A stretch of 64,000 nt of DNA from an uncultured Gammaproteobacteria bacterium (GTDB lineage Bacteria; Patescibacteriota; Microgenomatia; Levybacterales; UBA12049): positions 1,136 through 65,135 of the forward strand of contig CAYQEE010000010.1 of the NCBI GenBank assembly GCA_964416445.1, written 5' to 3'. This document shows, piece by piece, positions 1 through 56,430 of this stretch. Every line of letters begins with the position of its first letter. Within the stretch, counting starts at the first letter, position 1. The translations under genes were made by a program, and so were the position numbers. The notes beneath the pieces are model-generated. The model was given only the letters and a program-made list of their open reading frames with translations. It made no database searches and was not told the DNA's origin.

Positions 1-145
1 AATGATTGTTCTATCAAAAGGACTAATATGCAATGTATCGCATTGCGTTAAGGTATATGCTTCTCGTTGTTTTTTATCAGGAGATACAATTAAAAAGCTG
101 TTCATATCCTTGTATTATAGCCAAAGTTTGTGTACGATAAAAGTA

Positions 146-1948: not shown

Positions 1949-1952
1949 TCCT

Positions 1953-3020: not shown

Positions 3021-3025
3021 CGTCC

Positions 3026-4228: not shown

Positions 4229-4311
4229 AAGTTTGATAGAGATTGATGCAGTTGACAACGAAGTAAGCAATATGGAATAGTAAATAAGGAGATAAAAAGA
4301 GAGTACCGAAT

Positions 4312-4887: not shown

Positions 4888-4920
4888 GTATTTTTGAAAA
4901 TAATATAGTATAGTATCATT

Positions 4921-5697: not shown

Positions 5698-6203
5698 AAA
5701 TCAAAAGACAACAAGGATTTGGATTCATACAAATGATTGTTGCTGCTGCTTTTTTCTTTGTCATTGGGAGTATTCTTGTCAATATTTTTCATCCAATTGC
5801 GGCACTTCAAAACTCCAATGATGCAATACGAAAAACGGATCTCAATACATTAGATACTGCTCTTGAAACGTATTATCAGAAATATAAGCGATATCCTGAT
5901 GCAAGTAATGATTTTAAAATCATGGTAAGTAAACAATCACTCCAGTGGGGTCAAGATGGATTTGTTCCCTACCTCACTGTGCTTCCGCAAGATCCACTTT
6001 CCAATCATCAATATGTCTATTACACAGCAGATAATAACCAAGCATTTTGGCTTTATGCATCCTTGGAAAATAATGCTGATAGTCAGGCATGTGGGAAAAA
6101 TTGTAATTTCGGAAATGGAGATATTCCCGCAACTGCTTGTAGCAAAAGTGATCCTTCCATTCAATGTAATTATGGGGTATCAAGTTCCAATGTTACTCCG
6201 TAA
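5691..6203 (+). CDS. Pilin-like protein with atypical class III signal (GTG start overlapping the pilD stop)
   Basis: Frame continuous with the ORF-track 5505 ORF. Reads (V/M)KIKRQQG|FGFIQMIVAAAFFFVIGSILV. Q replaces the usual E at +5. C-terminal Cys-rich pseudopilin-like region. An alternative ATG at 5733 would lack the leader. Confidence 0.5.
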   Translation, partial: SVKIKRQQGFGFIQMIVAAAFFFVIGSILVNIFHPIAALQNSNDAIRKTDLNTLDTALETYYQKYKRYPDASNDFKIMVSKQSLQWGQDGFVPYLTVLPQDPLSNHQYVYYTADNNQAFWLYASLENNADSQACGKNCNFGNGDIPATACSKSDPSIQCNYGVSSSNVTP

Positions 6204-20719: not shown

Positions 20720-21736
20720 ATGAATACCTTACAGACACAAACTTCTTTCTCGCAGGCTCGAATCATTCTTACTGCGTGGTATTGTGTAACGCTTGCCATT
20801 ATTCTATTTGTCTTTTCAATTGCACTGTATAGTTCACAGTCAAAAGATTTTGTTCGTATTGTTTTGTTACAAGATTTTGGTAATCATACACCTCGGACAT
20901 TGACTCGGGTAGAGCGAAACGAAGTCCTTCAGCAAATTCAAGCACTACGGCAGACTACACGAGTGAGTTTACTTACTATTGATGCAATTGTCATGGTACT
21001 TGGGGCAGGACTTAGTTTTTTCCTTGCTGGTAAAACGTTGGAACCTATTGGTGTTATGCTCGAAAAGCAGACCCAATTTCTTGCAGACGCTTCTCATGAG
21101 CTTCGCACTCCCCTTTCAGCATTGCAAACCAGTACTGAAGTTGCCTTACGTTCTCAGCGTTCGAATGAAGAATATAAAGGAGTTATTACTGATGTTCATG
21201 CAGAAATTGTACGACTGGGGAAAATTGTTAATGATCTTTTATACCTTTCTCGTGCAGATAGTCAAGCAATATCGATTACGTTGAAACCAGTTGATTTAGC
21301 ACCTCTTATTCAGGAAACGCTTCAGAGTTTGGATCCGTTTATAAAGAAAAAAGCACTCCAAGTAAAAACAGACGTTGCAGAAAGCGTCGTTATTCTGGGC
21401 GACGAGGATAAGCTCAAACAACTTATTTTAATTTTCCTTGATAATGCAATAAAGTATACGCAAAGTGGTGGTACGATAACAGTACAGCTGAGCAAGAAAC
21501 CAAAGCCGATACTAACGATTATGGATACGGGGCTAGGATTGGATCAGAAAGAAATCAAACAACTCTTTCAACGATTTTATCGATCTGATCGGTCTCGTTC
21601 AACATCAGGTGTCGGACTTGGCCTTTCTATTGCAAAATCAATTATTGAACTGCATAATGCGAAAATTCTCGTAAAAAGTACTCCACAAAAAGGAAGTACC
21701 TTCGCTATTATTTTTCCGATAAATCCTGTACACTAA
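20720..21736 (+). CDS. Membrane sensor histidine kinase (HisKA + HATPase_c)
   Basis: Two TM segments. H-box ASHELRTPLSAL. N/G boxes DNAIKYT and GLGLSIAK. 338 aa. Operonic with the OmpR regulator. Confidence 0.85.
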   Translation: MNTLQTQTSFSQARIILTAWYCVTLAIILFVFSIALYSSQSKDFVRIVLLQDFGNHTPRTLTRVERNEVLQQIQALRQTTRVSLLTIDAIVMVLGAGLSFFLAGKTLEPIGVMLEKQTQFLADASHELRTPLSALQTSTEVALRSQRSNEEYKGVITDVHAEIVRLGKIVNDLLYLSRADSQAISITLKPVDLAPLIQETLQSLDPFIKKKALQVKTDVAESVVILGDEDKLKQLILIFLDNAIKYTQSGGTITVQLSKKPKPILTIMDTGLGLDQKEIKQLFQRFYRSDRSRSTSGVGLGLSIAKSIIELHNAKILVKSTPQKGSTFAIIFPINPVH

Positions 21737-21755
21737 AGGTATTCGTATAGATGTA

Positions 21756-22184
21756 TTGAATACTATGAAAGTAATTATTGAGTCTCCTTCATGCTTCTTT
21801 CTCCGATTTGATCGTGATGAGGAAGTTATCCAAGGAATCAAGAAATTTTGTCAAGAAAAACAAATCCTTGCGGGGACATTTACGATCATTGGTGCAGCAA
21901 AGGAAATACTACTCGCTTATTATGAATTAAAATCAAAAACATATACGGATATGCGGCTTGAAGAAGATGTTGAAATAACAGGAGTAACAGGAAATATTGC
22001 TACCATGGAAAAGGAGATCGTGATTCATGCGCATGGAACATTTTCTGATGAATTGTTTCGCACGTATGGAGGCCATGTAAAAAAACTTATTATTTCTGCG
22101 ACTGGAGAAGTAGCAATTACCGTACTGCAAGGGCCAATGCAAAGAAAATTTGATAAAAAAACAGGGCTCAACTTATTCGTATAA
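21756..22184 (+). CDS. PPC/DUF296 domain protein
   Basis: Pattern EVIQGIKKF...ILAGTFTIIGAAKEI...HAHGTF...GGHVKK matches the PPC (DUF296) fold. 142 aa. Confidence 0.55.
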   Translation: MNTMKVIIESPSCFFLRFDRDEEVIQGIKKFCQEKQILAGTFTIIGAAKEILLAYYELKSKTYTDMRLEEDVEITGVTGNIATMEKEIVIHAHGTFSDELFRTYGGHVKKLIISATGEVAITVLQGPMQRKFDKKTGLNLFV

Positions 22185-22228
22185 GACGCGTACCTTCATA
22201 CCAGCAGTACCCTCATGATGACAATACG

Positions 22229-23872
22229 TTATGCTGCTCTCAGCATTTTTTCATACGAAAACTTTTGTGCTAAAACACTTCGTGAAATCTCATTTACCGT
22301 TTCATAAAATTTGTTTCTACTCTCAGACAAAGCAAAAGGAATATGGATAATTTTCTTTTTTCCATCAGAGGTTGTATGCTCAATGATCCATACTTTCACG
22401 CCTCGTTTCAAATCTGCACTGGAAACGACTTGGTGAGTACCGGGTATCATATTCTTTCTATCGCCTACATACCCAATGCCGAAGAAAACTTTATTTGCCA
22501 GCATGCGGTGACTAAGTTCTTCTCCTACTCGTGAGCGGTTTATTACTCCACCATCATCGTTTATTATTATGTTCATTTCATTGACTCGTTTTACACTACT
22601 GATGTGATATCGTCTTCGACGATCACCCCACATCCTGTTTCGAATATGGTCTGCAATCTCGTACAGCTGCCTTTCTTGTTCTTCGGTACGTAACTGGTTA
22701 TGGAGCACTTGTGCTACATGTATATTTCGTTGTTTTTTTTGTTCAGCTGTTCGAACGGATGTTGTACTAAAGTCTCGTTTTTCTGAGATAAGTGGTGTTG
22801 GTTTTCCAGGTTCCCGTTGTTTTGCTCGTTCTTTTTTTGCTCTTTTGAGATGGGATGCATGAGTATCCCATTGACGCAGAGAACCTCCCGACGCAAATGT
22901 CTCGCGATCTCTTTGGAAGAGGTAGTCTTTATCCATTTTTGTGAGTTTTCGATTATGTATATAAAAGGGAATATGATCATGATGAGAAAGCCATCGTCTC
23001 AGCCCTTTTGCATTTCTGTTGAATGCATGTGCCAAAAAGGGAACTAGTGTGGCTTGTTCAATAAATCGGGCAGGTGTTTGGAGAATTGTTGTTGGGGCAA
23101 CCTGATTTTCGGCTGCTGAGATATACGGAAAGAGAGCATGGATTCCTTCTGGGTGCGTGATGGGCACCGCTTGTGCTTGTGCATGAGAATTTCTCACAAT
23201 ATACGCTTTAATTCCTTGTGTTTGGTTGGGAGAAATCGTGCCTCTGAGGTCTATCGGAATTTGATTTACGCTCACATAGCCAATACCTATCACGATCTCT
23301 TCAGTTTTTTTGATCACCGCGTTTGCTGATACTGTCAAAACATCTGCTTTATTCGTCATGGTAGGGTGACTCAAGTGGTCGTAGCTGACTTTTATTCCTG
23401 TCAATGAACGATTCGTATAACTTCCATCGTCGTTAAGATTGACCACAGGTTCGTACACTCGTGAAATTTTTGGAGTTACTTGCCAATGGTCATATTCGCG
23501 CTTCATCGATGTCGTACCGGCATCAATAAAAGCTCCTGCATCAAGAACTTCTCCTAATTTTTCCCAAAATCCTTTTTTGTGTGCAGCGTGCACATTTCGG
23601 TGCGTTACTTGTTTCGTCCATTGATACTTTATTTCCTCTGCAATTTGTGGAATGGGAGTTGTTTGCAGTTCTTGATCAAGCAATGAACAGGCTTCCCTGC
23701 CGAGCGCTGATTCTCGGTTGGGCTTGTTATTCTGGATTCGTTGTTCCTTCAGACGACGCCTAGCCACCAAGGTCCCTTTTATTTGCGCAGCTAAGGTTGT
23801 TGCTGTTTCAGTAACCCGATTACTCTGCATCGAAATATGTCGCAGTCTTGTTCCCAATTCAGTGCGTGGCAT
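22229..23872 (-). CDS. Large hypothetical protein (547 aa) with an internal duplication and a highly basic centre
   Basis: Only long ORF in the region. Repeated segments NDDGSYTNRSLTG...GIGYVSVNQIP and NDDGGVINRSRVG...GIGYVGDRKNMIP. A central K/R/Q/E-rich stretch. Visibly higher G+C and different codon texture from the flanking genes. Confidence 0.6.
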   Translation of the reverse strand: MPRTELGTRLRHISMQSNRVTETATTLAAQIKGTLVARRRLKEQRIQNNKPNRESALGREACSLLDQELQTTPIPQIAEEIKYQWTKQVTHRNVHAAHKKGFWEKLGEVLDAGAFIDAGTTSMKREYDHWQVTPKISRVYEPVVNLNDDGSYTNRSLTGIKVSYDHLSHPTMTNKADVLTVSANAVIKKTEEIVIGIGYVSVNQIPIDLRGTISPNQTQGIKAYIVRNSHAQAQAVPITHPEGIHALFPYISAAENQVAPTTILQTPARFIEQATLVPFLAHAFNRNAKGLRRWLSHHDHIPFYIHNRKLTKMDKDYLFQRDRETFASGGSLRQWDTHASHLKRAKKERAKQREPGKPTPLISEKRDFSTTSVRTAEQKKQRNIHVAQVLHNQLRTEEQERQLYEIADHIRNRMWGDRRRRYHISSVKRVNEMNIIINDDGGVINRSRVGEELSHRMLANKVFFGIGYVGDRKNMIPGTHQVVSSADLKRGVKVWIIEHTTSDGKKKIIHIPFALSESRNKFYETVNEISRSVLAQKFSYEKMLRAA

Positions 23873-23949
23873 AAAGTGTCTTATCGTAACATAGTCTCAG
23901 GGGAGCGTCAACTATAAGCTATTTTTAGATTCGGAAATACGATGGATTC

Positions 23950-24105
23950 GCAAAAAGGAATGAAGGCAACTTGGGAGAAAAAACGGTAGAAAATAAGAAA
24001 ACAAAAAAAACAAGAAAAATGTAAATGACAGTAGAGAAATAAAAATGGAAGCAAAAACGGAAAAGTACACATAAGACAATAAGCACTACAGAGAGCGAGG
24101 GTAAT
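23950..24105. repeat. Polypurine/polypyrimidine tract (~150 nt) upstream of the 547-aa gene
   Basis: The plus strand is almost exclusively A/G (aaaataagaaaacaaaaaaaacaagaaaaatg...ggaagcaaaaacggaaaag...agagagcgaggg). Confidence 0.7.
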
Positions 24106-24202
24106 CATGGTTCTCAAAGATGATAATAACAAATAGTTTCCTCTTTCTCTAGAGATCGCTTATCATTTCCAAAATTTTTCCTTATTTAGCTTCAATTTTG
24201 TC

Positions 24203-24247
24203 CAAAAAATGTCTCATTCTGGATGAGACACCCATGAGACTTTTTTT
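24203..24247. terminator. Bidirectional intrinsic terminator (recG 3' end)
   Basis: Perfect 7-bp hairpin GTCTCAT-tctgg-ATGAGAC (24211-24229) flanked by A7/T7 runs on both sides. A second ATGAGAC copy at 24234-24240 sits directly before T7. Confidence 0.6.
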
Positions 24248-24357
24248 ACGTGTTATTTTCGTATTTTAATCAGCTTTTTCCACAAGTTATTTTTTTCTCT
24301 CTAAGTAAAAATGAGGAAAAAAAGAATAAAACAGACGATAGGAAGGGAAAAAGAGCA

Positions 24358-26394
24358 TCAATCAGGACTTACCTGCTTTACGTTTATTTCTTGTATTTTT
24401 TTTGCTAAACGTGGATAGTCCTCAAGAAATGGAATAATTTTTTCCGCTTCCTTTTTGGCTTTTTCTATAAGACTAAAGTCAGAAAAAGATGCAATTTTTA
24501 ACATATTTTGTCCACTTTGCAGTGTTCCATAGATTTCTCCCGGTCCTCGCAACTGTAAATCGAGTTCAGCAAGTTCACTGCCGACATGCATCGTTTCCAT
24601 AGCGGCAAGTCGTTTTTTCGTTTGTGGACTTTGTGATTCGGTAAATAGTAAACAATACGATTGCTTATCTCCTCTCCCTACTCTCCCTCTGAGCTGATGA
24701 AGTTGGGCAAGTCCAAAACGTTCGGCTGCTTCAATAACAATAATAGTAGCATTAGGAATATCTATACCCACTTCAACAACAGGTGTCGCAATCAGAATGT
24801 CAATTTTCTTATCCCGAAAAGCTTGTAACACCGCATCTTTCTCTTTTGGTTTCATTTTTCCGTGAAGTAATCCAAGCGTCAGATTAGGGAACACTTCCCG
24901 TTGTAACCGTTCATACTCTTTTGAGGCAGCCTTAATAGTTACCATACTTTCTGATTCTTCAATAAACGGACAAACAATAAATGCTTGATCACCTTCCTTT
25001 ATTTTTTCTTCAATCCAATGATATCCATTTTCTCTTTTTTCATTGGGAACAAGCCACGTTTTAATTCGTTTTCTTCCCCTGGGCATTTCATCTAAAACTG
25101 ATAAATCTAAATCTCCATACAAGGTTAACGCAACGGTTCGAGGAATTGGCGTTGCGGTCATCGTGAGTACATGAGGATTATCCCCCTTTTGTCGAAGGAT
25201 TGCGCGCTGTTCAACACCAAATCGTTGCTGTTCATCAATGGCAATAAACCCTAATTTCTGAAACACTATTTTTTGCGATAACACTGCGTGAGTTCCCACC
25301 AGAATATCAAAATCATTTGATTTTGGTTTTTTATTTCCTGTAGCAAGTTCGATACGGACACCAAAAGGACTCAACATTTTTGAAGTCGTTGTAAAATGTT
25401 GTTCAGCCAAAATTTCTGTTGGTGCAGCAAGTACCGATTGGAATCCATTTAAATACGCTAAATACATACCAATAGCCGAGACGACTGTTTTTCCACTTCC
25501 TACATCGCCCTGCAATAATCGGTTCATTGGTTGCGTTTTCGCAAGATCAGCAAAAATATCAGTTACTGCTTTTTTTTGTGCTCCGGTTAATACAAACGGT
25601 AATTTTTCCCAGAACTGAGCAATTTCATTTTTATATTGGTCAATTGCGTACGCATGACCGAGTAATTTTTTACTCCATTCTTGTTTCCGAACTGAACTGG
25701 CAAGTTGCAGGAGAAAAATTTCATCAAATGATAGCCTTTCTTTTGCCTTTAAAGCATGATTAAGTGTTTTTGGAAAATGAATTTGCTCAATGGCTGATTG
25801 ATAATCCATAAGTTGATGATTTATAATAATTGAGGACGGTAAGTGTTCTGTAAGATTTTCTTTGTTTTCCTGGATAATTCGATAAGTTTGCCGGCGAATC
25901 CATTTTGATGAAACTCCCTTTGTCTCATGATAAATTGGAACAAGTCTTCCCGTATGAATTGATTCTCGAGGTTTTTCGACTCCTTCAGAAGTTTGAATAA
26001 TTTCGTACTCTGGCGAATAGAGTATCAAACGATTTTTATTTTGTTCTACCCTCCCTGATAGCGAAATAATTTCACCTGCATGAATCATTTTTGTTAGATA
26101 TATTTGGTTGAACCAGATAACATCAATTTCTCCAGTACTATCAGCAATTTTGGCCTGTTGTAGTTTTTTATATCGTTTTGTGAAAATATTTTTGATCTCC
26201 AAAACTTTTCCGTGAATGGTTACCACTTCCCCAGCTTGCAGCGTCCCAATGGGTGAAATTAAAGTGTAGTCCTCATACCGTGTGGGAATAAAATACAGGA
26301 AATCTTCGAGTGTTTTAATATTCAATTTTTCGAGGCGTGATGCATATAATTTTAATGCTCTCCCTCCATCTCGCACTGATATGTGTAAGCTCAT
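24358..26394 (-). CDS. recG: ATP-dependent DNA helicase RecG
   Basis: Wedge/OB N-terminus. Walker A GDVGSGKT. DEQQRFGV DExH box. TATPIPRT motif. 678 aa. Confidence 0.9.
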   Translation of the reverse strand: MSLHISVRDGGRALKLYASRLEKLNIKTLEDFLYFIPTRYEDYTLISPIGTLQAGEVVTIHGKVLEIKNIFTKRYKKLQQAKIADSTGEIDVIWFNQIYLTKMIHAGEIISLSGRVEQNKNRLILYSPEYEIIQTSEGVEKPRESIHTGRLVPIYHETKGVSSKWIRRQTYRIIQENKENLTEHLPSSIIINHQLMDYQSAIEQIHFPKTLNHALKAKERLSFDEIFLLQLASSVRKQEWSKKLLGHAYAIDQYKNEIAQFWEKLPFVLTGAQKKAVTDIFADLAKTQPMNRLLQGDVGSGKTVVSAIGMYLAYLNGFQSVLAAPTEILAEQHFTTTSKMLSPFGVRIELATGNKKPKSNDFDILVGTHAVLSQKIVFQKLGFIAIDEQQRFGVEQRAILRQKGDNPHVLTMTATPIPRTVALTLYGDLDLSVLDEMPRGRKRIKTWLVPNEKRENGYHWIEEKIKEGDQAFIVCPFIEESESMVTIKAASKEYERLQREVFPNLTLGLLHGKMKPKEKDAVLQAFRDKKIDILIATPVVEVGIDIPNATIIVIEAAERFGLAQLHQLRGRVGRGDKQSYCLLFTESQSPQTKKRLAAMETMHVGSELAELDLQLRGPGEIYGTLQSGQNMLKIASFSDFSLIEKAKKEAEKIIPFLEDYPRLAKKIQEINVKQVSPD

Positions 26395-29341: not shown

Positions 29342-29410
29342 TTTACCTTCATGAGTATATCATTTTACTTGGCAATTTTCATCTCTGCGGAAAAATACGT
29401 CGATATCATG

Positions 29411-31804
29411 TACTATAAAAGGAAGTTGATAAAAATCAATAAAAACACTTTTGGCAGCTCTTATTACAGGAAAGTATTTGTTTTGTGTTTGCTAGTATTT
29501 ATTTTACTTAGTATTTATCTGACAATTCTTTTATTATCACAGCGCCAACAGTTACAAGAGCATGCTGCAGGAAATGTTATTTATGCTAGTCCAGGTGATA
29601 ACCTAAACCAAAAAGTTAGTTCGCTTACTCCAGGTGATACGCTTATTTTTCATGATGGTATTTATAATGGATCGTTACCTGCAGCGAATATTCATGGTAC
29701 AAGTTCTCAACTTATAACAATTGAAGCAGAACATGATGGTATGGCAATCATTGATGGACAAAATACGGTAAGTACTGTTATTGATTTAAGTAATAGTTCT
29801 TACGTTCTCTTACAAGGTTTTGTTGCAAGGAATTCATCTGGCAGTGTCGTACGAGGCGATGGGAGTAATCATATAACCGTAAGTAGAGTTACTGCGTATA
29901 ATGCAGGGTCAGGAAATACGAATTGTTTTACCATGTCAAATGGGGCAAGTTATGATTTGGTTGTCGATGCAGCATCTTGGGGAAGATGCAGGTATGGTTT
30001 TCTCGCATACCATTCCAGTAATATAACGTTTCGCAGAACCTTTGCAAAATGGGAACAAACAGATAATTTTTCTCCTGCGCCTCGAAGTGGGTACGGAGCC
30101 TATGGGTCAACGTTTATCTCTTTTGAAAATGTAATCGGCTATGATATCCAACCAACAACCAATGTCTCCGACTTCTTTTCTGGCGTTTGGGAAACTTCTG
30201 ACGGTCCATCAACACATGATATTTCTTATTATGGTTCTATTTTTTATCATGTGTTAGGTGATGGAATTCGCGTAAATGACTTGCAAGCATTTCCTAATAC
30301 CATTATCAAAGATAGCTTTTTTAGCAATCCTCTGGTTCAAAATATTAGTTATCCCTTTACTAAAGGAGCAGGAATTGAATGGGTGACTCCAATAACTGGT
30401 ACGGTTAGTAATAATGTCTTTATGGGGAATAACATCGGAATCAATCAAGGAAACGGTGTCCCAAGTGTTATGAATAATATTTTTATGAATAATTCCACTG
30501 CAATATCGGGTTCAATTCAAGGAAGCTATAATGATTTTTGGCAAAATTCTAGTAATGGGTATACTCCAGGTTCAACAGATAAACAAATAGATCCAGCGTT
30601 TAATGTCGCAAAGTATGGATTAGGTGCATACTTTTTTGTACCTTCGACATCACCATTAAAAAATTCTGGACAGGGAGGAAGTGAAATTGGAGCAAATATT
30701 ATCTATGAGTATGTAAATGGTCAACTTACCAATGTCCCTCTATGGCCATGGCCTATGGAAAACAGAATTAAAGCAGAACGGGGTATTAGTGTTACATGGG
30801 CTTCAGGTGGAGGTTTTTGGAACTCTTTAGATGGTGTATATCCAAGTATTACTATTACTCTACCGATTTCTTCTCCCCAACCATCTCCTTCTAGTAGTCC
30901 AGTACCAACAAACACACCTCAACCAACAAGTCAACCAACGGGAACACCCAAACCAACGAGTACTCCTACTCCAACGCCAACGACGTATCCATCAGGCGTT
31001 ACTTATTGTGGAGCACATTGTCAATCCAATAGTGATTGTGATCAAAGTGGGGTAACCTGTGGAATTTGTGATCCTGACGCATTGGTCTGCACCACAGGAA
31101 ATGGTTCAATTACTCCTACTCCTTCCTTGTCTCTTACGCCAACCAGTGGTACTTCTGTAACACCAACTGATACCCCCTCACCAACTCAAACACGACTGAG
31201 TAGCCCTACTCCATTTACTACACTTACGCCTACCCCCACCCTTGGCCCAGCGGTGGGGATACTCTCTTTGCATTTTGAAGGAATTGATCCTCAAAACAAT
31301 AGTAAACCCACTCATCCCCAACGAAGTGTTCTACTTTCTTTTTATCCTACCAATGACTTTACAAAAACTCCTCAAACTACCCTTCCCGTGATTGTTTCTT
31401 TTAACTCTGCTGATCCACTGGGTTCTTTTGTCAACACCAATATTGATCTTTCCTCCATTCCACGAGGCAGTTACTATCTCCTCGCTAAATCTCCTGAAGG
31501 ATCTCTCAGAGAAGAACTCTCCTCACAACTGGTCTCTATCACCAATGGACAAACAGTCTCTCTCAATGGAACAACTCCTACCAATATGCAAATGGGTAAC
31601 ATTAATAATGATAATCAAATTGATCTATCTGACTATAATATTCTCGTTGATTGTTACGGAGCAAAACAAGCAAGCCCTGCCTGTAAAGTACATTCCATCT
31701 CAGACCAATACCAACCAAACTTCGCTGACCTCAATGACGATGGTATCGTCAATGGGGTCGATTACAATCTCTTAATAAGAAATTTTGGAAAAACTGGATA
31801 TTAA
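29411..31804 (+). CDS. Membrane-anchored or secreted right-handed beta-helix (pectate-lyase-fold) protein with Pro/Thr linker and C-terminal dockerin-like module
   Basis: N-terminal hydrophobic anchor. Periodic parallel-beta-helix repeats (NxxGSG.../SNH...). A roughly 120-aa low-complexity P/T/S linker (SPQPSPSSSPVPTNTPQPTSQPTGTPKPTSTPTPTPTT). Two dockerin-type Ca-binding repeats (NDNQIDLSDYNILVDCY; DLNDDGIVNGVDYNLLIRNF). Start moved from 29351 to the ATG at 29411 before the hydrophobic segment. Confidence 0.7.
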   Translation, partial: YYKRKLIKINKNTFGSSYYRKVFVLCLLVFILLSIYLTILLLSQRQQLQEHAAGNVIYASPGDNLNQKVSSLTPGDTLIFHDGIYNGSLPAANIHGTSSQLITIEAEHDGMAIIDGQNTVSTVIDLSNSSYVLLQGFVARNSSGSVVRGDGSNHITVSRVTAYNAGSGNTNCFTMSNGASYDLVVDAASWGRCRYGFLAYHSSNITFRRTFAKWEQTDNFSPAPRSGYGAYGSTFISFENVIGYDIQPTTNVSDFFSGVWETSDGPSTHDISYYGSIFYHVLGDGIRVNDLQAFPNTIIKDSFFSNPLVQNISYPFTKGAGIEWVTPITGTVSNNVFMGNNIGINQGNGVPSVMNNIFMNNSTAISGSIQGSYNDFWQNSSNGYTPGSTDKQIDPAFNVAKYGLGAYFFVPSTSPLKNSGQGGSEIGANIIYEYVNGQLTNVPLWPWPMENRIKAERGISVTWASGGGFWNSLDGVYPSITITLPISSPQPSPSSSPVPTNTPQPTSQPTGTPKPTSTPTPTPTTYPSGVTYCGAHCQSNSDCDQSGVTCGICDPDALVCTTGNGSITPTPSLSLTPTSGTSVTPTDTPSPTQTRLSSPTPFTTLTPTPTLGPAVGILSLHFEGIDPQNNSKPTHPQRSVLLSFYPTNDFTKTPQTTLPVIVSFNSADPLGSFVNTNIDLSSIPRGSYYLLAKSPEGSLREELSSQLVSITNGQTVSLNGTTPTNMQMGNINNDNQIDLSDYNILVDCYGAKQASPACKVHSISDQYQPNFADLNDDGIVNGVDYNLLIRNFGKTGY

Positions 31805-32080
31805 TTATTGTTCAATTTCCTCTGAAAATGAGAAAAAGATATGCCAAATTTTCTTAATGATCGTTTTTGGAATATTTTGTTCATCCGCCTTTTTCTCTAA
31901 TGCTTCAACTACTGTTTTTTCTCTTGGAAAATCTCGTATTTCAAATCCACCCGATTTTTTAAAATCGCCAATTTTTTTCATAATTTCAAGTCGTCTTTTA
32001 ACTAACTGTAATAATTCATTATCAAGTGCATCAATATCGCTTCGTAATTTTGCTAAATTGTCCGTATCGTTAACTTTCAT
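31805..32080 (-). CDS. Chorismate mutase (AroQ class, monofunctional, ~91 aa)
   Basis: LRSDIDALDNELLQLVKRRLEIMKKIG...R...K helical AroQ pattern. Start trimmed to the ATG at 32080 to give the usual size. 11-nt overlap with the pheA stop. Confidence 0.6.
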   Translation of the reverse strand: MKVNDTDNLAKLRSDIDALDNELLQLVKRRLEIMKKIGDFKKSGGFEIRDFPREKTVVEALEKKADEQNIPKTIIKKIWHIFFSFSEEIEQ

Positions 32081-32894
32081 AAATTGTGCCACGTTCATAG
32101 ACGCCAAGAATTTTATATGTGCTTGCATATTTTTGTAATATTTGTGAAATGAGATGCCTATCAATTAATGTAGGGGTAACTTCAACATCGATCCAAAATT
32201 GATATTCCCATTCAGTTCCGGGAATTGGGCGTGATTCAATTTTTGTTATATTAATCTTTCGGTCGGCTAATTGCATCAACAAATTCGCTAAGGAGCCTGG
32301 TGTATGGGGAATAGTAAAAATAATTGAAGACTTATTTCCTTGTGTTTCCTTCCTTTGAGAAGATACAAGGAAAAATCTGGTGATATTATAATGGTTATCC
32401 CCTATATTGGGCAATACAATAGTAAGGCGCGGGTCATTTGCTAATTCTTTACTTCCAATTGCCGCTGCACGTTTATCATCAATTTGCAGGATCAGATCTT
32501 TTGCATTTGCAGTACTTACTGTTTCTTGAAACGAAAGATGGTAGTTCTGGATAAAATTTTTGCACTGAGCAAGTGCTTTGGGGTGAGAATATACTTTTAT
32601 AATATCTTCAAGAGACGCAGTATGGAGTCCAATCAGATAAAGGTTTATTTTCAAATATGCTTCTTGTACTATCTTAAGATTTTCATGGAATAAATAATCC
32701 ATGTTTTCATGAATATTACTCGTGATTGAATTTTCAATGGGGAGCACTCCAATCGTGCGTGGATTTTCCATAACTTTTTCAACAATCTCTGCAAAGTTAG
32801 GACAGGACAATAACTGATAATCATCTCCAAAAACTTTTTTTGCAAGAATATGACTGTAGGAATTCTGTGGTCCTAAATAATATGCGCAAGTCAT
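32070..32894 (-). CDS. pheA: Prephenate dehydratase with C-terminal ACT domain
   Basis: PDT domain (YLGPQNSYSH...TIGVLPIENS...) plus ACT. 274 aa. Confidence 0.8.
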   Translation of the reverse strand: MTCAYYLGPQNSYSHILAKKVFGDDYQLLSCPNFAEIVEKVMENPRTIGVLPIENSITSNIHENMDYLFHENLKIVQEAYLKINLYLIGLHTASLEDIIKVYSHPKALAQCKNFIQNYHLSFQETVSTANAKDLILQIDDKRAAAIGSKELANDPRLTIVLPNIGDNHYNITRFFLVSSQRKETQGNKSSIIFTIPHTPGSLANLLMQLADRKINITKIESRPIPGTEWEYQFWIDVEVTPTLIDRHLISQILQKYASTYKILGVYERGTIYES

Positions 32895-33664
32895 CTAAAA
32901 TTTGCCTCCTTCTTTAATCTAATCAGTGTGTCAATACTGTGGGAAAGAAGCTGCCGGCTAAATTTATTATAAATAATCATATCAAGTAATAATGCTTTAT
33001 TAATCCCCATATAACTTAATGCTTCGAATAAGTAAGAGGGCGCTGGAGTATCAATAATAGTTGGGTTTAGTTTTTGCTCAGTGGCAAGATATCGTACCAT
33101 TTGTGCAAAAAATTGTGATTGCGCAACAAGTTTATCATGCTCCTGAGGATTCATTTCAGTGACTTGAATGCCAAGCGATTGAAAGTAATGCTTTACGCAA
33201 GCAAAGATGGTTTCAGGCGAAGAGACGTTATAAATTACCAAGGGCAATCCTGCTAATAGCCCTTCTTTTTTTGCAATACTTGTCGGCCCAAACATTGGAT
33301 GGGTAGCTATTATAGCAATATTTTTGGGAAGGTGTTTTTTGAGAATATTGACGGGGTATTCTTTTACTGAACAAACATCAATAATTGTTTGTGATGGGTT
33401 AATGAATTTTCCAATCTCTAACACGACAGCTTCAAATGATCGAATGGAAACAGCGGGGATAATTATATCTGCGGATTGTATGACTTCACCAATGGAAGCT
33501 TTAGGAGTGCAGTGTGTGGGTAAGGATTTTTTATGAATATGGGGAGAATAAACCACAATGCGGTTATTTGGAAATAAATTTTCACCTATTACTTCACCAA
33601 ATTTCCCATAACCGATGATTCCTAATGTTTTTTCTAACAAGTTGAAATGCATATGGTTATTCAT
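32891..33664 (-). CDS. tyrA: Prephenate/arogenate dehydrogenase
   Basis: Rossmann [12 protein letters not shown]-binding N-terminus, PDH C-domain. 257 aa. Embedded in the aro operon. Confidence 0.7.
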
Positions 33665-34749
33665 TCATTTTGTGCTTTATGCCGTAAGATATGATCCATG
33701 ATAACTAATGCGGCCATAGCATCAACAATTGGCACTGCGCGTGGTAGGACACAGGGGTCATGCCGACCAAATGCCTTTAGGGTGGTTTCCTCGCGTTGAC
33801 GGGTAATTGTTTTTTGCTCTCTCTGAATTGTAGACACTGGCTTAAATGCAACACGAAAATATATTGGTTGCCCTGTTGAGATACCACCTAAGGTACCACC
33901 TGCAAAATTAGTTCTTGTTTTTACATTTCCCTGTTGGTCTAAGTAAAATTCATCATTATGTTGGCTACCACGCAGTTCAACTCCTGAAAATCCTGAACCA
34001 AATTCAAATCCTTTTGTTGCGTTAATACTCATCATTGCTTTCGCAAGGTCTGCAGGAAGCTTATCGAAAACTGGTTCTCCAAGCCCTGCTGGCACCTGTT
34101 TGATGACTCCCCGGATAATTCCACCCACAGAATCTCCTTCATCTCGTATTTTTTCAATAAGGGCAATCATTTCTGAAGCAAGTTGCTTATCAGGACAACG
34201 CACAATAGTTGATTCGATCTGTTCTTTGGTGACTTCACGAAAGTCTATGTGCGTTTTAACTGTACCTACTTGTTCAACATAACTGAGAATTTCAATACCG
34301 TATTGTTCGGTTAGGTACTTTTTGGCAATGGCTCCAGCTGCTACACGTGCTAATGTTTCGCGTGCAGATGCTCGACCGCTTCCTCTCACATCGCGTATAC
34401 CATATTTTTTTTCGAAAGTATAATCTGCATGACCTGGCCGATAAACATTTGCTAAATGATCGTAATCTTCTGGCCTCATATCCATGTTATATGCAAGAAG
34501 AAGAATTGGTGTTCCCGTAGTTTTCCCTTCGAAGACACCAGACAGGATGTGAATACGGTCTTGTTCTTTTCTTGGTGTTGTTATACTGCTTTGACCGGGC
34601 TTTCGCCTATCAAGTTCTTTTTGAATTTCTTCCTGGGAAATCGATATGCCTGGGGGACATCCATCGACAACGCAACCCACTCCTCCCCCGTGAGATTCTC
34701 CAAATGTCGTTATTCGAAATAATTGTCCAAAAGTATTTCCTGGCATCAT
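33661..34749 (-). CDS. aroC: Chorismate synthase
   Basis: [18 protein letters not shown] signature. 362 aa. Confidence 0.9.
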
Positions 34750-35561
34750 TACTCCTTTTGCATAAGTACTCTTTCCATAATGTCTATTGGTGGTTCAACG
34801 CCTGTATATTGTGAAAATTTGAGAACTGCTTGCCAAAAAAGCATTCGTTCTCCATAAACTATTTTACACCCTTTTACTTGCGCATCTCGGATGAATTTTG
34901 TTTCCCGTGGTTTTGCAATTACATCCATAACGATTCGCTTTTCAGGAATTTCTGTTATGGGAACTACTGAATCATTCTCAGAATACATACCAACTGTTGT
35001 TGCTTGAATAATAATATCTGCATGCGATAATTCTTGTGAGAGATTTGTGAAAGAACCATACCTGCATGCAACTTTTTCAGCAAGATTCTTTGCATGTTCT
35101 TCGGTTCGATTTAAAATGATAACATTTGCCCCAGCATCTTTTAGTGCAAATGCTAACGCATGTGCAACTCCACCGGCACCAAGAAGCACAATGTTTTTTT
35201 TCGAGATTTCTGTTACTTCTTGCAATGCTTTTATTCCACCTTTTCCATCAGTATTTCCACCAATTAATTTCCCATTATGATTTGTAACGATATTGACTGC
35301 ACCAATTCTCTGCGCATCGTTATCAAGTTCATCGAGAAAAGGTATAATAGCAATTTTATAAGGTATGGTTACTCCTACGGCATGTAATCCTAATCCACGT
35401 ATTCCTTTTACTGCCTCAGCCAAATTTGTAACAATGAGAGGGATATAAATAAAATTAAGATTCAGTTCAGCAAAAGCAGCATTATATAATGCATACATTT
35501 TACTTGTTTTGTATGTTGTTCCCAAAAAACCTATTACTTTTGTTTCACCGTTAATTCTCAT
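34749..35561 (-). CDS. aroE: Shikimate dehydrogenase
   Basis: Shikimate-DH N-domain plus Rossmann GAGGVA. 270 aa. Confidence 0.8.
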
Positions 35562-36132
35562 AATTTTCTATTTTCATTACAATATCTGCCACAATTTCTT
35601 TTGGAAATTCTTGGTTAATTGGTATGTTAATATTTGCTAATCGTTCGTAGATTGGCATTCGAGTTGCTAAAAGTTCATCTAATGATTTTTTGGGATTATC
35701 TTGATATGGAAAAAAAGGAGGGATCCCTTTCGCACGTATCCTTTGCAATAATATTGATCGATCAACATTGAGATAAATAATTATTCCTAACGGTAATAGA
35801 AGCTTTTGATTATTCTCGGAAAGTATCGTGCCCCCCCCGACAGATAGCACGAACGGTTCGGATTGTTGCATATTTTTTATTAACTGTGCTAGTGCTGTAT
35901 GTTCGAGATTTCTGAAATTTTCAGAACCTTTTTTCTTGAAAATTTCTCGAGAAGAAAGTTTCTCAGAATATTTTTTTTCATATTCTTTTTCAAGTATCTG
36001 ATCTAATTCTAACTGGTGATATCCGAGCTTTTGGGCAAGCAGATTACCAATGGTAGTTTTACCACTGCCTTTCATTCCGATGAGAATAATATTTGGTTTA
36101 TTTCTCATAGAGCGTAAAGTTAGCTCCCGCAT
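35551..36132 (-). CDS. aroK: Shikimate kinase
   Basis: P-loop GMKGSGKTTIG. About 190 aa. The true start may be the internal ATG near 36108. Confidence 0.8.
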   Translation of the reverse strand: MRELTLRSMRNKPNIILIGMKGSGKTTIGNLLAQKLGYHQLELDQILEKEYEKKYSEKLSSREIFKKKGSENFRNLEHTALAQLIKNMQQSEPFVLSVGGGTILSENNQKLLLPLGIIIYLNVDRSILLQRIRAKGIPPFFPYQDNPKKSLDELLATRMPIYERLANINIPINQEFPKEIVADIVMKIENYEN

Positions 36133-37414
36133 CTTTCATATCGGGTATAAATGTATCAAATGATTTGTCTACCATTTGCGCATCAGAAATAGTTGTTTCT
36201 CCGTCAATTTGCATACCTGCAAGTGCGAATGAAAGAACCATTCGATGATCGAAATATCCATTAATTTGAGCAGCATGTAATTTCCAAGAACCATCATTAT
36301 CAATGAGTAATCCATCTTCTTTTTCAACTACTTTTGCACCCATTTTTTTAAGTTCTGTTGCTAAAGCACTGATACGATCACATTCTTTCCATCGAGCAGT
36401 TAATGCATTTTTAATTATTGTTTTTCCTTTTGCAAAACAGGCAGCGATGGCAATAGTAGGAACTTGGTCAGGTAAGTCATTCATATCAATTTCAAGTCCA
36501 TGTAATTGGCTTGTTCTTGCAGTAATTGTGTTGTTCTCAATAGTTATATCTGCTCCCATTTGTTCTAAGATCGTGAGAACTTTTTTATCTCCATACGGAT
36601 CTTGTAAATCCATTCCTCGTACTGTTATTTCTGATGAGGGTGTGAGCACGGCAGCTAATAATGGATAAGGTGGTGCAGACATTTCAAAGGGAATTTCCGC
36701 ATCAAATGAATGAGGTAATGTATTGCCTGAAAATTTATAATGATCATATCTATTATCGACATTTTCAAATGATACCCCTACTTTCTTAAACCAATACAAA
36801 AGTAAATCAATATATGCTTTTTCTCCAGGATTTCTAACAAATATCTCAACAGGTTTATTCGACATAGCTGAGGCAATAAGAACACTAAATACTGGTTGGC
36901 AACCTATACCATCCATATGCGCTACACCTCCATTTACTTTTCCTTTGATAAGGAATGGTGCCATTCCATCATTTTTTGTAGATATTATCGTTATGCCAAG
37001 TTGTTGAAATGGTTCAAGTAATTTCTCAGAAATTTTACGAAGCGTTCGAATTGATTTATCACCAGTAATAATAGACCATTCTGAACATGCTGCAGCGACA
37101 CCTAAAATAAAAAATAACATTGTTCCTGAATTGTTGACATTAATTATATCAGGAGGTGTATGTAAATTTCCTCCAACTCCAGTTATCTGAAAAATATTAG
37201 GTTCAAGTTCTTCGATTTTTGCTCCATACATTTTCATCGCATTTACAGCTTCATACCAATCAGCACTTACTTTTGGCTTTCGTATTATTGAAATCCCTTG
37301 AGCTAACGAAGCTAAGATAAGTGCTCGAAATGAATGTGTTTTACTTCGAGGCATACGAATATTCCCACGTAAATGTTTACTTTTTTTAACGGACAATATC
37401 ATGTTTTTTTTCAT
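36098..37414 (-). CDS. aroA: 3-phosphoshikimate 1-carboxyvinyltransferase (EPSP synthase)
   Basis: 438 aa. N-terminal LRGNIRMPRSKTHSFRALILASLAQG EPSPS signature. Confidence 0.85.
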   Translation of the reverse strand: MKKNMILSVKKSKHLRGNIRMPRSKTHSFRALILASLAQGISIIRKPKVSADWYEAVNAMKMYGAKIEELEPNIFQITGVGGNLHTPPDIINVNNSGTMLFFILGVAAACSEWSIITGDKSIRTLRKISEKLLEPFQQLGITIISTKNDGMAPFLIKGKVNGGVAHMDGIGCQPVFSVLIASAMSNKPVEIFVRNPGEKAYIDLLLYWFKKVGVSFENVDNRYDHYKFSGNTLPHSFDAEIPFEMSAPPYPLLAAVLTPSSEITVRGMDLQDPYGDKKVLTILEQMGADITIENNTITARTSQLHGLEIDMNDLPDQVPTIAIAACFAKGKTIIKNALTARWKECDRISALATELKKMGAKVVEKEDGLLIDNDGSWKLHAAQINGYFDHRMVLSFALAGMQIDGETTISDAQMVDKSFDTFIPDMKDAGANFTLYEK

Positions 37415-37417
37415 AAA

Positions 37418-37855
37418 TTATTTCCTTACATAAGTAACCAATTTTTTGAGACCTTCATAATAACTTTTCTCCTGTAATCCAACGATCTGATCAATCCGAA
37501 CATCGTCGAGTACATTGATTGCCTTACTAATTCCTGTTTTATGAATATCAGACATATGAACTTCTATAATAGGTTTACTGAAATCAATACATGCAGCGCG
37601 AAGACTATATCCATAACGAACGAGAGCTCCAGGATTTATTACTGCACCTTCTGCTGCTCGTGACGAATCTTGTTGGAGAAAGTCAATAATTGCTCCTTCA
37701 TGATTTGATTGAAAAATAGATAATTCGCATCCTAATGATTTACCAAGTATTTCAAGTTGATGGTTAATTTCCGAAAGTGTCAGTTTACCGTATTTATTGG
37801 AATCACGTTTTCCTAACATGTTAAGATTTGGCCCGTGAATAATTAATGCTTTCAT
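37418..37855 (-). CDS. aroQ: 3-dehydroquinate dehydratase, type II
   Basis: MKALIIHGPNLNMLGKR...H motif of type II DHQase. 145 aa. Confidence 0.85.
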   Translation of the reverse strand: MKALIIHGPNLNMLGKRDSNKYGKLTLSEINHQLEILGKSLGCELSIFQSNHEGAIIDFLQQDSSRAAEGAVINPGALVRYGYSLRAACIDFSKPIIEVHMSDIHKTGISKAINVLDDVRIDQIVGLQEKSYYEGLKKLVTYVRK

Positions 37856-37857
37856 AA

Positions 37858-38946
37858 TTATCTAATTTCTTTCAATGCTGTGCGAATAATGTTTTCAGAA
37901 ACTTGCTGGTTATATTTCGCTCTACCGATTTTTTCCAATAAGGTCCACTGTAAAACACCGTTCTCTATTTTTTTATCAAACATAATATTTCTCAGTATGT
38001 CTTCTTCGGTAATAAAGTGAATTGTTGTTTGAAGACCTGTATCTTTCAGCTTATGAATAACATATTCACTTTCTTCATGCGAGAGCAATTTCTGTAATTC
38101 AGATATTCGCGTTTCTACAATCATACCTAAAAGAATTGCTTCTCCATGCATAAGTGGCATACTCGAGGTAAAACTCAGAGATTCAATTGCATGACCAATA
38201 GTATGTCCAAAGTTAAGGATTTTCCTCAAACCTTTTTCTGTTGCATCTGTTTCAACTATTTTTGCTTTAATTTCAACAGATCGTAATATAATTTCTGCTA
38301 ACTCAGAATTGGTAAATTCAAAAGGTTTTTTAGCTGTTACTTTTTCAAAGTAGTTTCTATCTATGAGTAATCCATGTTTAATAATTTCAGCAAATCCTTC
38401 TAGGAACGCTCTTTTTGGTAATGTTTTTAGTGTCTCAATATCAATAATAACTGCTGAGGGTTGCGTGAACGTTCCAATATAATTTTTAAACTCATTTAAA
38501 TTAATACCGAGTTTTCCTCCGACCATAGCATCAACCTGAGCAGTAATGCTAGTTGGAATTTGAATGAATTCTATTCCTCGCATATACGTACTTGCTGCAA
38601 ATCCTCCCATATCTCCAATGACACCTCCTCCTAAGTTAATCACTAAGGAATTTCTATCAAATTGATTTTTGAGAAGATGATTCCATATCGTTGTTACGGT
38701 ATCAATAGTTTTTACTTTTTCCCCAGGAGGTAAAACCAATGGATAAAGAGGACTCTCCATACCTGATTGTAATTTTACTAACCAAGGTTTCTGTACATTA
38801 CTGTCAGTGATGACGGCAATTTTTGAGTATCCTTCTCTTGGTAATATTCGAGAAATATCTTTTAGCATATCTTCACCAATAAATACGGTATAAGAATGTG
38901 ACTTTTCCGGAATATGAATTGTTGTTTTATACATCATAGGTTTCAT
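37858..38946 (-). CDS. aroB: 3-dehydroquinate synthase
   Basis: 362 aa. GGGVIGDMGGFAA glycine-rich NAD motif. Metal-binding His residues. Confidence 0.85.
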   Translation of the reverse strand: MKPMMYKTTIHIPEKSHSYTVFIGEDMLKDISRILPREGYSKIAVITDSNVQKPWLVKLQSGMESPLYPLVLPPGEKVKTIDTVTTIWNHLLKNQFDRNSLVINLGGGVIGDMGGFAASTYMRGIEFIQIPTSITAQVDAMVGGKLGINLNEFKNYIGTFTQPSAVIIDIETLKTLPKRAFLEGFAEIIKHGLLIDRNYFEKVTAKKPFEFTNSELAEIILRSVEIKAKIVETDATEKGLRKILNFGHTIGHAIESLSFTSSMPLMHGEAILLGMIVETRISELQKLLSHEESEYVIHKLKDTGLQTTIHFITEEDILRNIMFDKKIENGVLQWTLLEKIGRAKYNQQVSENIIRTALKEIR

Positions 38947-38966
38947 AGAAATTTACTAATGATTAT

Positions 38967-39755
38967 CTATATTTTTTGTTTCGCTTTTTCCTTTTCAAGA
39001 TCGTCGGTTAATACTTGGAGTTGTTTCCAAGTTATTTGTTGTTTGGCATCAGTAACAGCAACCGATGGATTTGGATGTACTTCTATAATCAAGCCATCAA
39101 TGTTGTATTGGTTTGCTTCATGCGCAATTCGAAACACATTCTCGACAGTCCCTCCAGTATGTGATGGATCAAATACCATAGGAAGACCCGTTTTCTTTTT
39201 TATTCTCATTGACATCTCCCAATCAGGAATATTTCGATATCCTTGAGGGTTTTCTCCATAAGGTACAAAACCTCGGTGGCAAAGAATAAGATTTTCTTTT
39301 TTTACTCCTCCAGCAAGAACATGCTCTACAATTCCTTCCCAATGTTTTTCATCTGGCCATATTTGATTTTTAACCATAAGGACGATTCGCTTATCTTGTG
39401 CTGCTATCCGTGCGAGTTCTCGTTGGATATAATGATTTTGGTTTCTTGCTCCAATCCAAATCATAAGTTTTCCATTCTTTAATTCGGGAAGAACGGCATC
39501 AATCACTTTTTTTGCCTGTTCAGGAATGAGCGGTTCTACTGCAGGATTGAGACCAGCTTTTGCTGCTTGGATCAAAAATGGAATCCCATTCTCTCCAAAC
39601 CCTTCAAAACCAGGTTTTGTGCGTGGTTTCCATAAACTGAGCCTAATAAAATCAACACCGAAGTTTTTTGCTTGTGTGATTGATTCTGTCACCTGTGCTT
39701 GTGACTCAACTGCACAAGGTCCGGCAATAATTATTGTTTTTCTTCGTTTTTTCAT
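38967..39755 (-). CDS. aroG: 3-deoxy-7-phosphoheptulonate (DAHP) synthase, type I-beta (KDO8PS-like)
   Basis: IIIAGPCAVES...LWKPRT...DPSH pattern of the DAHPS/KDOPS family. Its position as first gene of the aro operon favours DAHPS. Start trimmed from the ORF-track 39866 to the ATG at 39755. Confidence 0.75.
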   Translation of the reverse strand: MKKRRKTIIIAGPCAVESQAQVTESITQAKNFGVDFIRLSLWKPRTKPGFEGFGENGIPFLIQAAKAGLNPAVEPLIPEQAKKVIDAVLPELKNGKLMIWIGARNQNHYIQRELARIAAQDKRIVLMVKNQIWPDEKHWEGIVEHVLAGGVKKENLILCHRGFVPYGENPQGYRNIPDWEMSMRIKKKTGLPMVFDPSHTGGTVENVFRIAHEANQYNIDGLIIEVHPNPSVAVTDAKQQITWKQLQVLTDDLEKEKAKQKI

Positions 39756-39765
39756 ATTTAGGTAT

Positions 39766-39788
39766 AAAAAAACCTCCCTTGTGGGAGG
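39766..39788 (-). terminator. Leader-region intrinsic terminator (attenuator 3:4 hairpin) directly upstream of aroG
   Basis: Minus-strand RNA CCUCCC-ACAA-GGGAGG followed by U7. It ends 11 nt before the aroG ATG. Confidence 0.6.
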
Positions 39789-39811
39789 TGCTGTTTCTTC
39801 TTTTGTGTGTT

Positions 39812-39886
39812 TTATTTTACACGAAACAACCTCCCGGGTTGGGAAGTAAAGTAAAAATAAAACCAACTTTTATTTTGTAAATGCAT
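39812..39886 (-). CDS. Aromatic amino-acid attenuation leader peptide (24 aa: MHLQNKSWFYFYFTSQPGRLFRVK)
   Basis: A small ORF in the aroG leader with a run of UGG UUU UAU UUU UAC UUU (W F Y F Y F) immediately 5' of hairpin arm 1 (CUUCCC, 39846-39841). Its stop codon lies between the alternative hairpins. Confidence 0.55.
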   Translation of the reverse strand: MHLQNKSWFYFYFTSQPGRLFRVK

Positions 39887-56419: not shown

Positions 56420-56430
56420 AGTTATATTAG

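Follow-up and report, generated by a model that had tools for sequence, protein, structure and literature searches.

A fusion of two paralogous proteins of a rare family, encoded beside recG in a Patescibacteria chromosome

Results

The window analyzed here is a 64,000-nucleotide (nt) stretch of metagenomic contig CAYQEE010000010.1 (assembly GCA_964416445.1). At 22229-23872 on its minus strand, stop codon included, lies the target gene, whose 547-amino-acid (aa) product (P0001) joins in a single chain two related units that are elsewhere encoded by adjacent genes. An earlier interpretation of the DNA made from its letters, hereafter the sequence-only reading, had delimited this open reading frame (ORF), and the ORF list, the translation and the homologues described below agree with it in giving an ATG start and 547 codons. 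The position claimed for the gene, between a two-component locus and recG, is likewise borne out: it is flanked on one side by genes for a response regulator, a histidine kinase and a PCC-domain protein, and on the other by recG. Beyond recG come purH and tyrS, and further off are type IV pilus genes, genes for shikimate-pathway enzymes, a class A penicillin-binding protein and tRNA synthetases. RecG, scanned against one genome per species, assigns the window to the Patescibacteria (candidate phyla radiation, CPR).

The target gene is real and intact. Its protein is unchanged on three additional metagenome contigs from several samples of one study, and comparison over 9.1 kb with contig L001, which stems from a different sample of this organism, reveals five single-nucleotide polymorphisms (SNPs), only one of which falls within the gene and is synonymous. 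No second copy of the gene is present in the window.

The sequence-only reading had called attention to two related segments in this protein, separated by a highly basic center, and the internal duplication is confirmed by several comparisons. When the two halves are aligned by BLASTP they match at an E value of 3e-08 with 24% identity, and a hidden Markov model of the domain built from other proteins only finds the domain twice in the target. Copy 1 spans aa 134-275 (23048-23473, minus strand; 46.3 bits, E 1.7e-16) and also matches homologue loci by tblastn at an E value of about 1e-6, and copy 2 spans aa 405-539 (22256-22660, minus strand; 115.9 bits, E 6.9e-38). In tblastn searches each of the two copies matches the single domain of homologues. 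The domain, of about 140 aa, has the consensus IAE.I....W.D ... I.I..DGT.INRSR.G..LSY in its N-terminal part, followed by a variable loop and then L.FGIGYFGDR..IIPEAQ..VSDEDL..GVKAYFVE ... IP.AY..S...F...LY.SA....P. The intervening region, aa 276-404 (22661-23047, minus strand), is indeed basic, with 27 K/R against 14 D/E residues and an isoelectric point (pI) of 10.5, but this property does not set it apart, since the protein as a whole has a pI of 10.0.

HMMER, run exhaustively over 1.84 billion cluster representatives, returned 31 hits at E values up to 1e-3, of which about 29 are credible, and all except one align to the C-terminal third of the target protein. One hit (P0030, 1259 aa with 18 matched stretches) was rejected as a relative because it is a translated tandem repeat. 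A word-indexed search of 5.8 billion proteins recovered the target protein itself only, and word-indexed searches with full-length and domain alignments recovered almost nothing, probably because low-complexity words swamped the candidates. Family loci were sought with a degenerate DNA pattern written by hand. With 58% identity over about 100 residues, P0002 is the closest relative; it is a truncated fragment in a different context, with a reading frame that decays on either side. The remaining relatives are 27-37% identical and 245-526 aa long, and come from short contigs of 40-53% G+C content from soil and other metagenomes. One of them, a 526-aa protein (P0020, of the B type described below), was recovered from the same study as the window organism (L089, SRR12266071), but its contig is another one and so are its neighbors, a weak GNAT-like gene on one side and a gene for a DUF4386 membrane protein on the other.

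Searches of annotation libraries were uniformly unproductive. The target protein has only a sub-threshold Pfam-A match to Peptidase_S64 (13 bits against a cut-off of 23.6) and no match in NCBIfam, and when the 29 family members were compared with both libraries, no family was common to them and only isolated noise appeared. PADLOC-DB 2.0 gives no match for the target protein and, among the 29 members, weak PbeC hits (E 0.003-0.005) for one protein. With no credible PADLOC hit in any member, the suggestion that the gene is defense-related is not borne out. In PHROGs the target protein reaches E values of at least 0.12 and the 29 members yield one unrelated hit. The BLAST comparison with phage and plasmid databases that the sequence-only reading had recommended also came back empty: tblastn found nothing in 50,697 INPHARED phage records and no match for P0001 or P0007 in 72,556 PLSDB plasmid records, and no match was found among IMG/VR viral contigs. 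Rfam gives no match in 21500-24600 at E values up to 1. As judged from these searches, the family is rare and patchy and matches nothing in the libraries examined. It lies outside every described kind that could be searched, and biologically the target is still a hypothetical protein, as are many CPR genes.

The credible relatives fall into two types. B-type proteins often begin with M.REGQPRGIQRL..FKR or MPRTE..R.I., continue with a long charged region that carries several short conserved motifs, score 90-210 bits against the domain profile and have a basic tail. A-type proteins (P0025, P0031, a 269-aa protein of contig L095, and the products of the upstream genes of contigs L102 and L103) have a distinct N-terminal region (..PAGLPE.FQP.. 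and ..C..L..E.....L..IAE.I...W), a more divergent domain that scores 49-82 bits where it is recognizable, and basic, aromatic tails such as GFFRRLFKKG, KKGWWRRLIDG and GKGWR that do not end in Ala-Ala. In soil contigs, four loci independent of one another have an A-type gene immediately 5' of a B-type gene, with both on the same strand. The gap between them is 64-84 nt in a locus represented by three contigs (L095, L096 and L101) and in L102 and L103; in L100, where A also precedes B, the A gene carries a further fusion to TPR repeats. The adjacent A and B genes, which encode proteins of 270-330 aa, each appear to have their own promoter.

The target protein contains both types. The pre-domain segment of the A-type protein P0025 shares 45% identity with residues 36-88 (E 2.4e-10), and the 46-bit score of copy 1 is close to the A-type range. 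On these grounds aa 1-275 (23048-23872, minus strand) can be read as an A-type unit, formed by a helical N-terminal region and copy 1. The basic linker that follows appears to be composite. The motif KGLRRWL at aa 290-296 resembles an A-type tail when the sequences are read side by side and may be its remnant, and the linker also gives weak matches (E 2.5e-4 to 3e-3) to the pre-domain regions of B-type proteins, consistent with a B-unit pre-domain region that leads into the B-type copy 2. The protein then ends in two alanines (..MLRAA-COOH, codons at 22232-22237, minus strand), which correspond to the terminal motif of the B-type homologues. Since the first half matches A-type proteins and the second half combines a B-type domain with the Ala-Ala end, the target protein is, by these sequence relationships, an A-B fusion, and among the members found it is the only one that has both domains in one chain. 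The claim that the gene has no operon partners therefore needs a qualification: it is true in this genome, but the protein itself fuses two genes that are adjacent elsewhere. We considered whether the MPRTE.. sequence might be a B-type N-terminal signal moved to the front of the fusion, and we make no such claim; read by eye, the first 45 residues are like A-type N-termini as well.

To the C-terminal domain we could assign a confident structure model. AlphaFold2, supplied with 21 aligned sequences for aa 403-547, gave a predicted local distance difference test score (pLDDT) of 90.8 and a predicted template modeling (TM) score of 0.83, and all five models scored at least 88 in pLDDT. The predicted fold runs from a helix through four antiparallel strands, a short helix and two further strands to a 29-residue C-terminal helix. 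A single-sequence AlphaFold run on the full-length protein was useless (pLDDT 37); the N-terminal and linker regions are predicted, at low confidence, to be helical. Foldseek comparison of the domain model with the Protein Data Bank (PDB) gave a best E value of 0.42, which is not significant, and comparison with the BFVD viral models gave a best E value of 0.026 with a TM-score of 0.32; across both sets TM-scores are at most 0.38. Searching all PDB sequences with the family profile returned nothing. A PDB sequence match to Lmo1757 (4hn3, E 0.0028) was judged spurious, as its poor alignment runs across the domain edge and the linker. The top Foldseek matches were Ugi, the uracil-DNA glycosylase inhibitor, and Bet v 1/START-like 'helix-grip' proteins, which resemble the model in being small alpha+beta domains with an antiparallel sheet packed by helices. 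These matches are non-significant (E at least 0.4, probability at most 0.3, query-normalized TM at most 0.25) and are not evidence of relationship. Provisionally, the predicted domain lies outside every described fold that could be searched.

A further property of the family concerns its extreme C-terminus. About 20 of the 22 complete B-type proteins end in Ala-Ala, preceded by various residues (LAA, AAA, AAAA, IAA, EAA, QAA and RAA), and the target protein, with its ..MLRAA terminus, has the free Ala-Ala end that is characteristic of ClpXP degrons. The key determinants of an ssrA-type degron are the last two alanines and the free carboxylate. By analogy, we infer that the conserved Ala-Ala with which the B unit ends serves as a ClpXP-type degron. 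Both the ssrA tag and the alanine tails added by RqcH are recognized by ClpXP and signal degradation (PMC8012679), and the likeness to these C-degrons lies in the position of the two alanines at the very end of the chain. The difference is that ssrA and RqcH alanines are added after ribosome stalling, whereas those of the family are genome-encoded and form the natural end of the full-length protein. As a separate observation, the codons for the last residues of the target (..KMLRAA) form a hairpin at 22231-22246, and the terminal Ala-Ala codons double as part of a terminator stem. This hairpin and its T-run on the plus strand, which overlap the last codons of the target, are likely the terminator of the convergent PCC gene.

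The relatives often reside in mobile surroundings. One family gene (P0023) is located between the remnant of an IS3-type transposase gene and the IS1 genes InsA and InsB, and P0002 is cut off beside what appears by eye to be the start of an IS256-type transposase. These two members (P0023 and P0002; L003/L004/L094 and L008) are broken by insertion sequences (IS). In two different soil loci (L095 at 3931-5741 and L099 at 1609-2886) the family gene is followed by genes for a conserved 230-aa protein that has no Pfam match and a 190-aa serine recombinase of the Hin/resolvase type. A large serine recombinase is encoded a few kb beyond that gene pair, and the whole may be a conserved mobile or invertible element. 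Other family neighbors encode a DUF4379/CapR-type zinc-finger protein and a protein with a RadC-like N-terminal region, the latter match being weak and below the Pfam cut-off.

At the target locus, comparison with related genomes supports acquisition of the gene. The best RecG matches are encoded by a 'Patescibacteria group' metagenome-assembled genome (MAG; L012, 74% identity over the part present) and by a Candidatus Levyibacteriota MAG (L009, 67%). In L012, the nearest relative found, the recG stop codon (1402-1404) abuts the stop of the convergent PCC gene (1405 onward) with zero nucleotides between them, so that the window holds 2.17 kb of extra DNA (22185-24357) that is absent from this junction. 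L009 keeps the order tyrS-purH-recG and has neither the PCC gene nor the target. No relative of the target is encoded at any of 80 RecG loci. The proposal of horizontal acquisition, which orthologs at the same syntenic position in relatives would have undermined, survives this check because no relative carries the gene there.

We also looked for presence or absence of the gene within the population. A break at 24179-24239 is common to all contigs that carry the target, the PCC gene or recG; in every sample the target-side contigs start at 24179 and the recG-side contigs end at 24239. We attribute this break to assembly, because it coincides with a palindromic hairpin with T-runs (inverted repeat I23, 24204-24247, minus strand) that lies between recG and the target and is likely the recG terminator. 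No contig with an empty site was found in the metagenomes.

Composition gives a similar indication, of limited strength. Relative to the 62 window ORFs of at least 120 aa, the target gene has raised G+C, as had been noticed by eye, to a modest extent (42.2% against a mean of 36.2% with a standard deviation, sd, of 2.9; z 2.1, rank 2 of 62), and its G+C at third codon positions (GC3) is 33.8% against 26.2% (z 2.0, rank 2 of 62). The different codon texture that had been reported is also real and mild. When codons were resampled from the rest of the window with the amino-acid content held fixed, synonymous codon usage deviated with a z of 3.1 (rank 4 of 62), with C- or G-ending codons favored (AAC, CAC, CCC, GTG, CTG and GAC). 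The protein itself is enriched 2.4-fold in Arg and 2.2-fold in His. We conclude that the gene is compositionally atypical, but only moderately. Taken together, the empty junction in L012, the shifts in G+C and codon usage, and the occurrence of a rare, patchy family in soil contigs of 40-53% G+C support the claim of horizontal acquisition, and this Patescibacteria chromosome most likely acquired the target gene in that way.

Upstream of the target, a promoter scan predicts a sigma-70-type promoter at 23883-23911 (minus strand; TTGACG-17-TACGAT with a TG extension). Only 10 nt separate its end from the ATG, and the mRNA, with a predicted start around 23876, would therefore be nearly leaderless. 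A similar TATAGTTGAC...ACTATGTTAC element is present just upstream of the ATG of the L089 homologue P0020, and close promoters precede other family genes. With its own predicted promoter and likely terminators on either side, the target gene looks like a transcription unit of its own.

Beyond the promoter is the tract that the sequence-only reading had described as almost pure purine and possibly triplex-forming. In a purine scan no other 150-nt segment of the 64 kb is as rich in purine as 23952-24101 (plus strand; pyrimidine-rich on the sense strand of the gene), which has 80% purine against a mean of 48% (sd 6%). Its composition (A86 G34 T15 C15) and its longest uninterrupted purine run of 11 nt are far from pure purine, however, and purine mirror repeats whose arms reach 8 nt are absent from it, so the triplex or H-DNA proposal finds no support. 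The tract, which is not conserved upstream of homologues, is A-rich spacer DNA rather than a triplex-forming element. Three of the five SNPs relative to L001 (23984, 24032 and 24037) fall in a 54-nt part of this tract and may mark a local mutational hotspot or sequencing or assembly noise.

Several other features of the window deserve mention. Type IV pilus machinery is encoded at 2-4228 (a PilB-like ATPase with an MshEN domain, a PilT-like ATPase and a PilC-like platform protein), and small ORFs that follow it to about 11466 may encode pilins. Chorismate synthase and EPSP synthase are encoded at 33661-34749 and 36098-37414, respectively, in an apparent aro run at 32070-39866, and prephenate dehydratase and chorismate mutase are encoded further along the chromosome of the same organism (contig L108). 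To our knowledge, aromatic amino-acid biosynthesis is uncommon in reduced CPR genomes. An 817-aa protein encoded at 29351-31804 (plus strand) has a pectate-lyase/chondroitinase-B-like beta-helix and a C-terminal dockerin type I domain; its codon usage is the most atypical in the window (z 5.6, above the target gene), and it may be a second foreign gene. Finally, a listed 311-aa ORF with a GTG start (55571-56506, minus strand) overlaps tRNA-Leu(tag) (56430-56512, minus strand) at its 5' end, and its true start is therefore further downstream.

Discussion

The A-B architecture offers the best entry into the possible function of this protein. Fusion of adjacent, separately encoded paralogues is classical 'Rosetta-stone' evidence of interaction, and a labile subunit combined with a stable paralogue is the logic of toxin-antitoxin, addiction and defense modules. 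Our tentative reading, to which we give slightly less than an even chance, is that the target is a basic cytoplasmic A-B fusion of a two-gene paralogue module, horizontally acquired, controlled by a degron and serving as an accessory 'conflict' element. Each unit would consist of a charged helical region followed by an alpha+beta domain of about 140 aa. Because the separate paralogues that are adjacent elsewhere occur fused here, the A and B domains would be expected to pair, within one chain in this organism and between chains in soil bacteria. The Ala-Ala degron would set the level of B, and here of the whole fusion, by proteolysis. The module would then be an accessory element of the toxin-antitoxin, addiction or defense kind and not a housekeeping one, which is suggested by the patchy distribution of the family and by the mobile DNA in which its neighbors are found.

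A bolder version of this proposal, which we regard as unlikely, is that the A/B pair represents an unrecognized two-component system with a new alpha+beta fold, in which B, whose terminal signals include the Ala-Ala degron, gates the activity of its paralogue A by regulated proteolysis. Such a system would constitute a toxin-antitoxin, abortive-infection or addiction module of a new class that moves between soil and CPR bacteria and has been captured here as a single chain in the minimal genome of an episymbiont.

Several observations weigh against the conflict-element proposal. Around 22185-24357 there is no transposase, recombinase, terminal inverted or direct repeat or target duplication, and a near-repeat of 10 nt that the eye picks out close to the ends of the extra DNA is no more than chance would give. 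The 'mobile' part of the earlier description accordingly finds no footing at the target locus itself, which has no mobility genes or repeats and no phage or plasmid matches. The compositional shift of about 2 sd is not extreme, and loss of the gene in the relative with the empty junction is possible, the recG of L012 being only 74% identical. The separate promoters of the A and B genes are unlike classical toxin-antitoxin operons, and both proteins are far larger than is typical of such systems. Neither sequence nor fold searches revealed similarity to any toxin family, the sequence gives no sign of toxicity, enzymatic activity or nucleic-acid binding, and no ClpX or ClpP gene is seen in the annotated parts of the window.

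The point about acquisition leads to a different account, in which the target is a native, vertically inherited, lineage-specific CPR gene with an ordinary role that has been lost in the sampled relatives, and whose composition follows from its amino-acid content. The core-chromosome setting (recG, purH, tyrS and the two-component system, with aro genes further off) would fit this account, as would the small size of the shift, part of whose G+C component is explained by Arg and Ala richness, and the lack of flanking mobility genes or repeats. The shifts in GC3 and synonymous codon choice, however, are not explicable by amino-acid content, and the gene is found in no relative whose recG is at least 53% identical. 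Its sole close homologue is the truncated fragment found elsewhere, and the others belong to soil organisms of higher G+C content. We consider vertical inheritance quite unlikely. That the target is a chance ORF or a decaying pseudogene is hardly credible, despite the absence of annotated relatives, the fragmentary state of the closest one and the interruption of several members by IS elements. An uninterrupted run of 547 codons at 36% G+C is very unlikely to arise by chance, and the match of both copies to an independent profile, together with the confident model, effectively refutes this idea. The gene also retains its terminal Ala-Ala and predicted promoter, and the coding SNP between samples is synonymous.

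Two further accounts concern function rather than origin. As the sequence-only reading had predicted for the central region, the basic K/R/E/Q-rich helices might bind DNA or RNA, with the paired domains serving for oligomerization, so that the protein would be nucleoid-associated or would regulate the transcription or replication of a mobile element. The high pI of the whole protein and of its center, the abundance of Arg, the predicted helices (at low confidence) and the recombinases that adjoin relatives are all in keeping with such a role. Basic charge by itself is weak evidence, however; helix-turn-helix, ribbon-helix-helix, zinc-finger or other DNA- or RNA-binding families were recognized in none of the 29 members, and it is the alpha+beta domain that is conserved, whereas the charged regions are conserved poorly. 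On balance a nucleic-acid-binding or regulatory function also seems unlikely to us. We judge as very unlikely that the N-terminal motif and an Arg-rich Ala-Ala tail are export signals, for example for conjugative type IV secretion, of a translocated effector or transfer-associated protein that acts in the host of the episymbiont or in a conjugation recipient. The idea derives from the Arg-rich C-terminal tails of many homologues (e.g. RRQVRRYHKPTQAAA and GRSHRRNRPNAAAA), which resemble positively charged type IV secretion signals, from the conserved motifs at both termini and from the mobile-element neighborhoods of the relatives, including the weak RadC-like neighbor. The tail of the window protein itself (SYEKMLRAA), however, is not Arg-rich. 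The target protein has no signal peptide or transmembrane segment, and no gene for type IV secretion, a relaxase or a coupling protein is near it; the pilus genes 18 kb away are ordinary.

Returning to the conflict-element reading, two known systems offer useful comparisons. CapRel(SJ46) is a single-chain, fused toxin-antitoxin defense protein, and CapRel-like proteins resemble the target in that paired modules, which are separate genes elsewhere, are united in one chain, and in being accessory, horizontally spread and solitary. The target differs from fused toxin-antitoxin proteins in that its halves are paralogous and that it has no toxin or antitoxin similarity and no PADLOC match. In polymorphic-toxin loci, immunity-type proteins such as those of the SUKH superfamily are encoded in arrays of tandem paralogues. 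Their small alpha+beta domains, adjacent paralogues, occasional fused repeats, patchy distribution and mobile-rich surroundings are all reminiscent of the present family; the family nevertheless has no Pfam SUKH or Imm hit, its long charged N-termini and conserved terminal motifs are atypical of immunity proteins, and no toxin gene is seen beside family genes.

Genes without assignable function are common in CPR genomes, and the finding of one more such ORFan is not surprising in kind. Most unassignable CPR genes have no relatives, however, whereas the target is tractable, with relatives to compare, a confident domain model, an A-then-B gene architecture and a near-invariant Ala-Ala end. The fusion architecture predicts that A and B physically interact, and the terminal alanines provide a proteolysis hypothesis that can be tested. 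Should the module turn out to serve in conflict or addiction, it would present a new fold and a design in which one paralogue gates another, and it would record an exchange of genes between soil bacteria and CPR bacteria with ultra-small genomes. If not, it would still represent a well-defined new domain family that is ready for curation.

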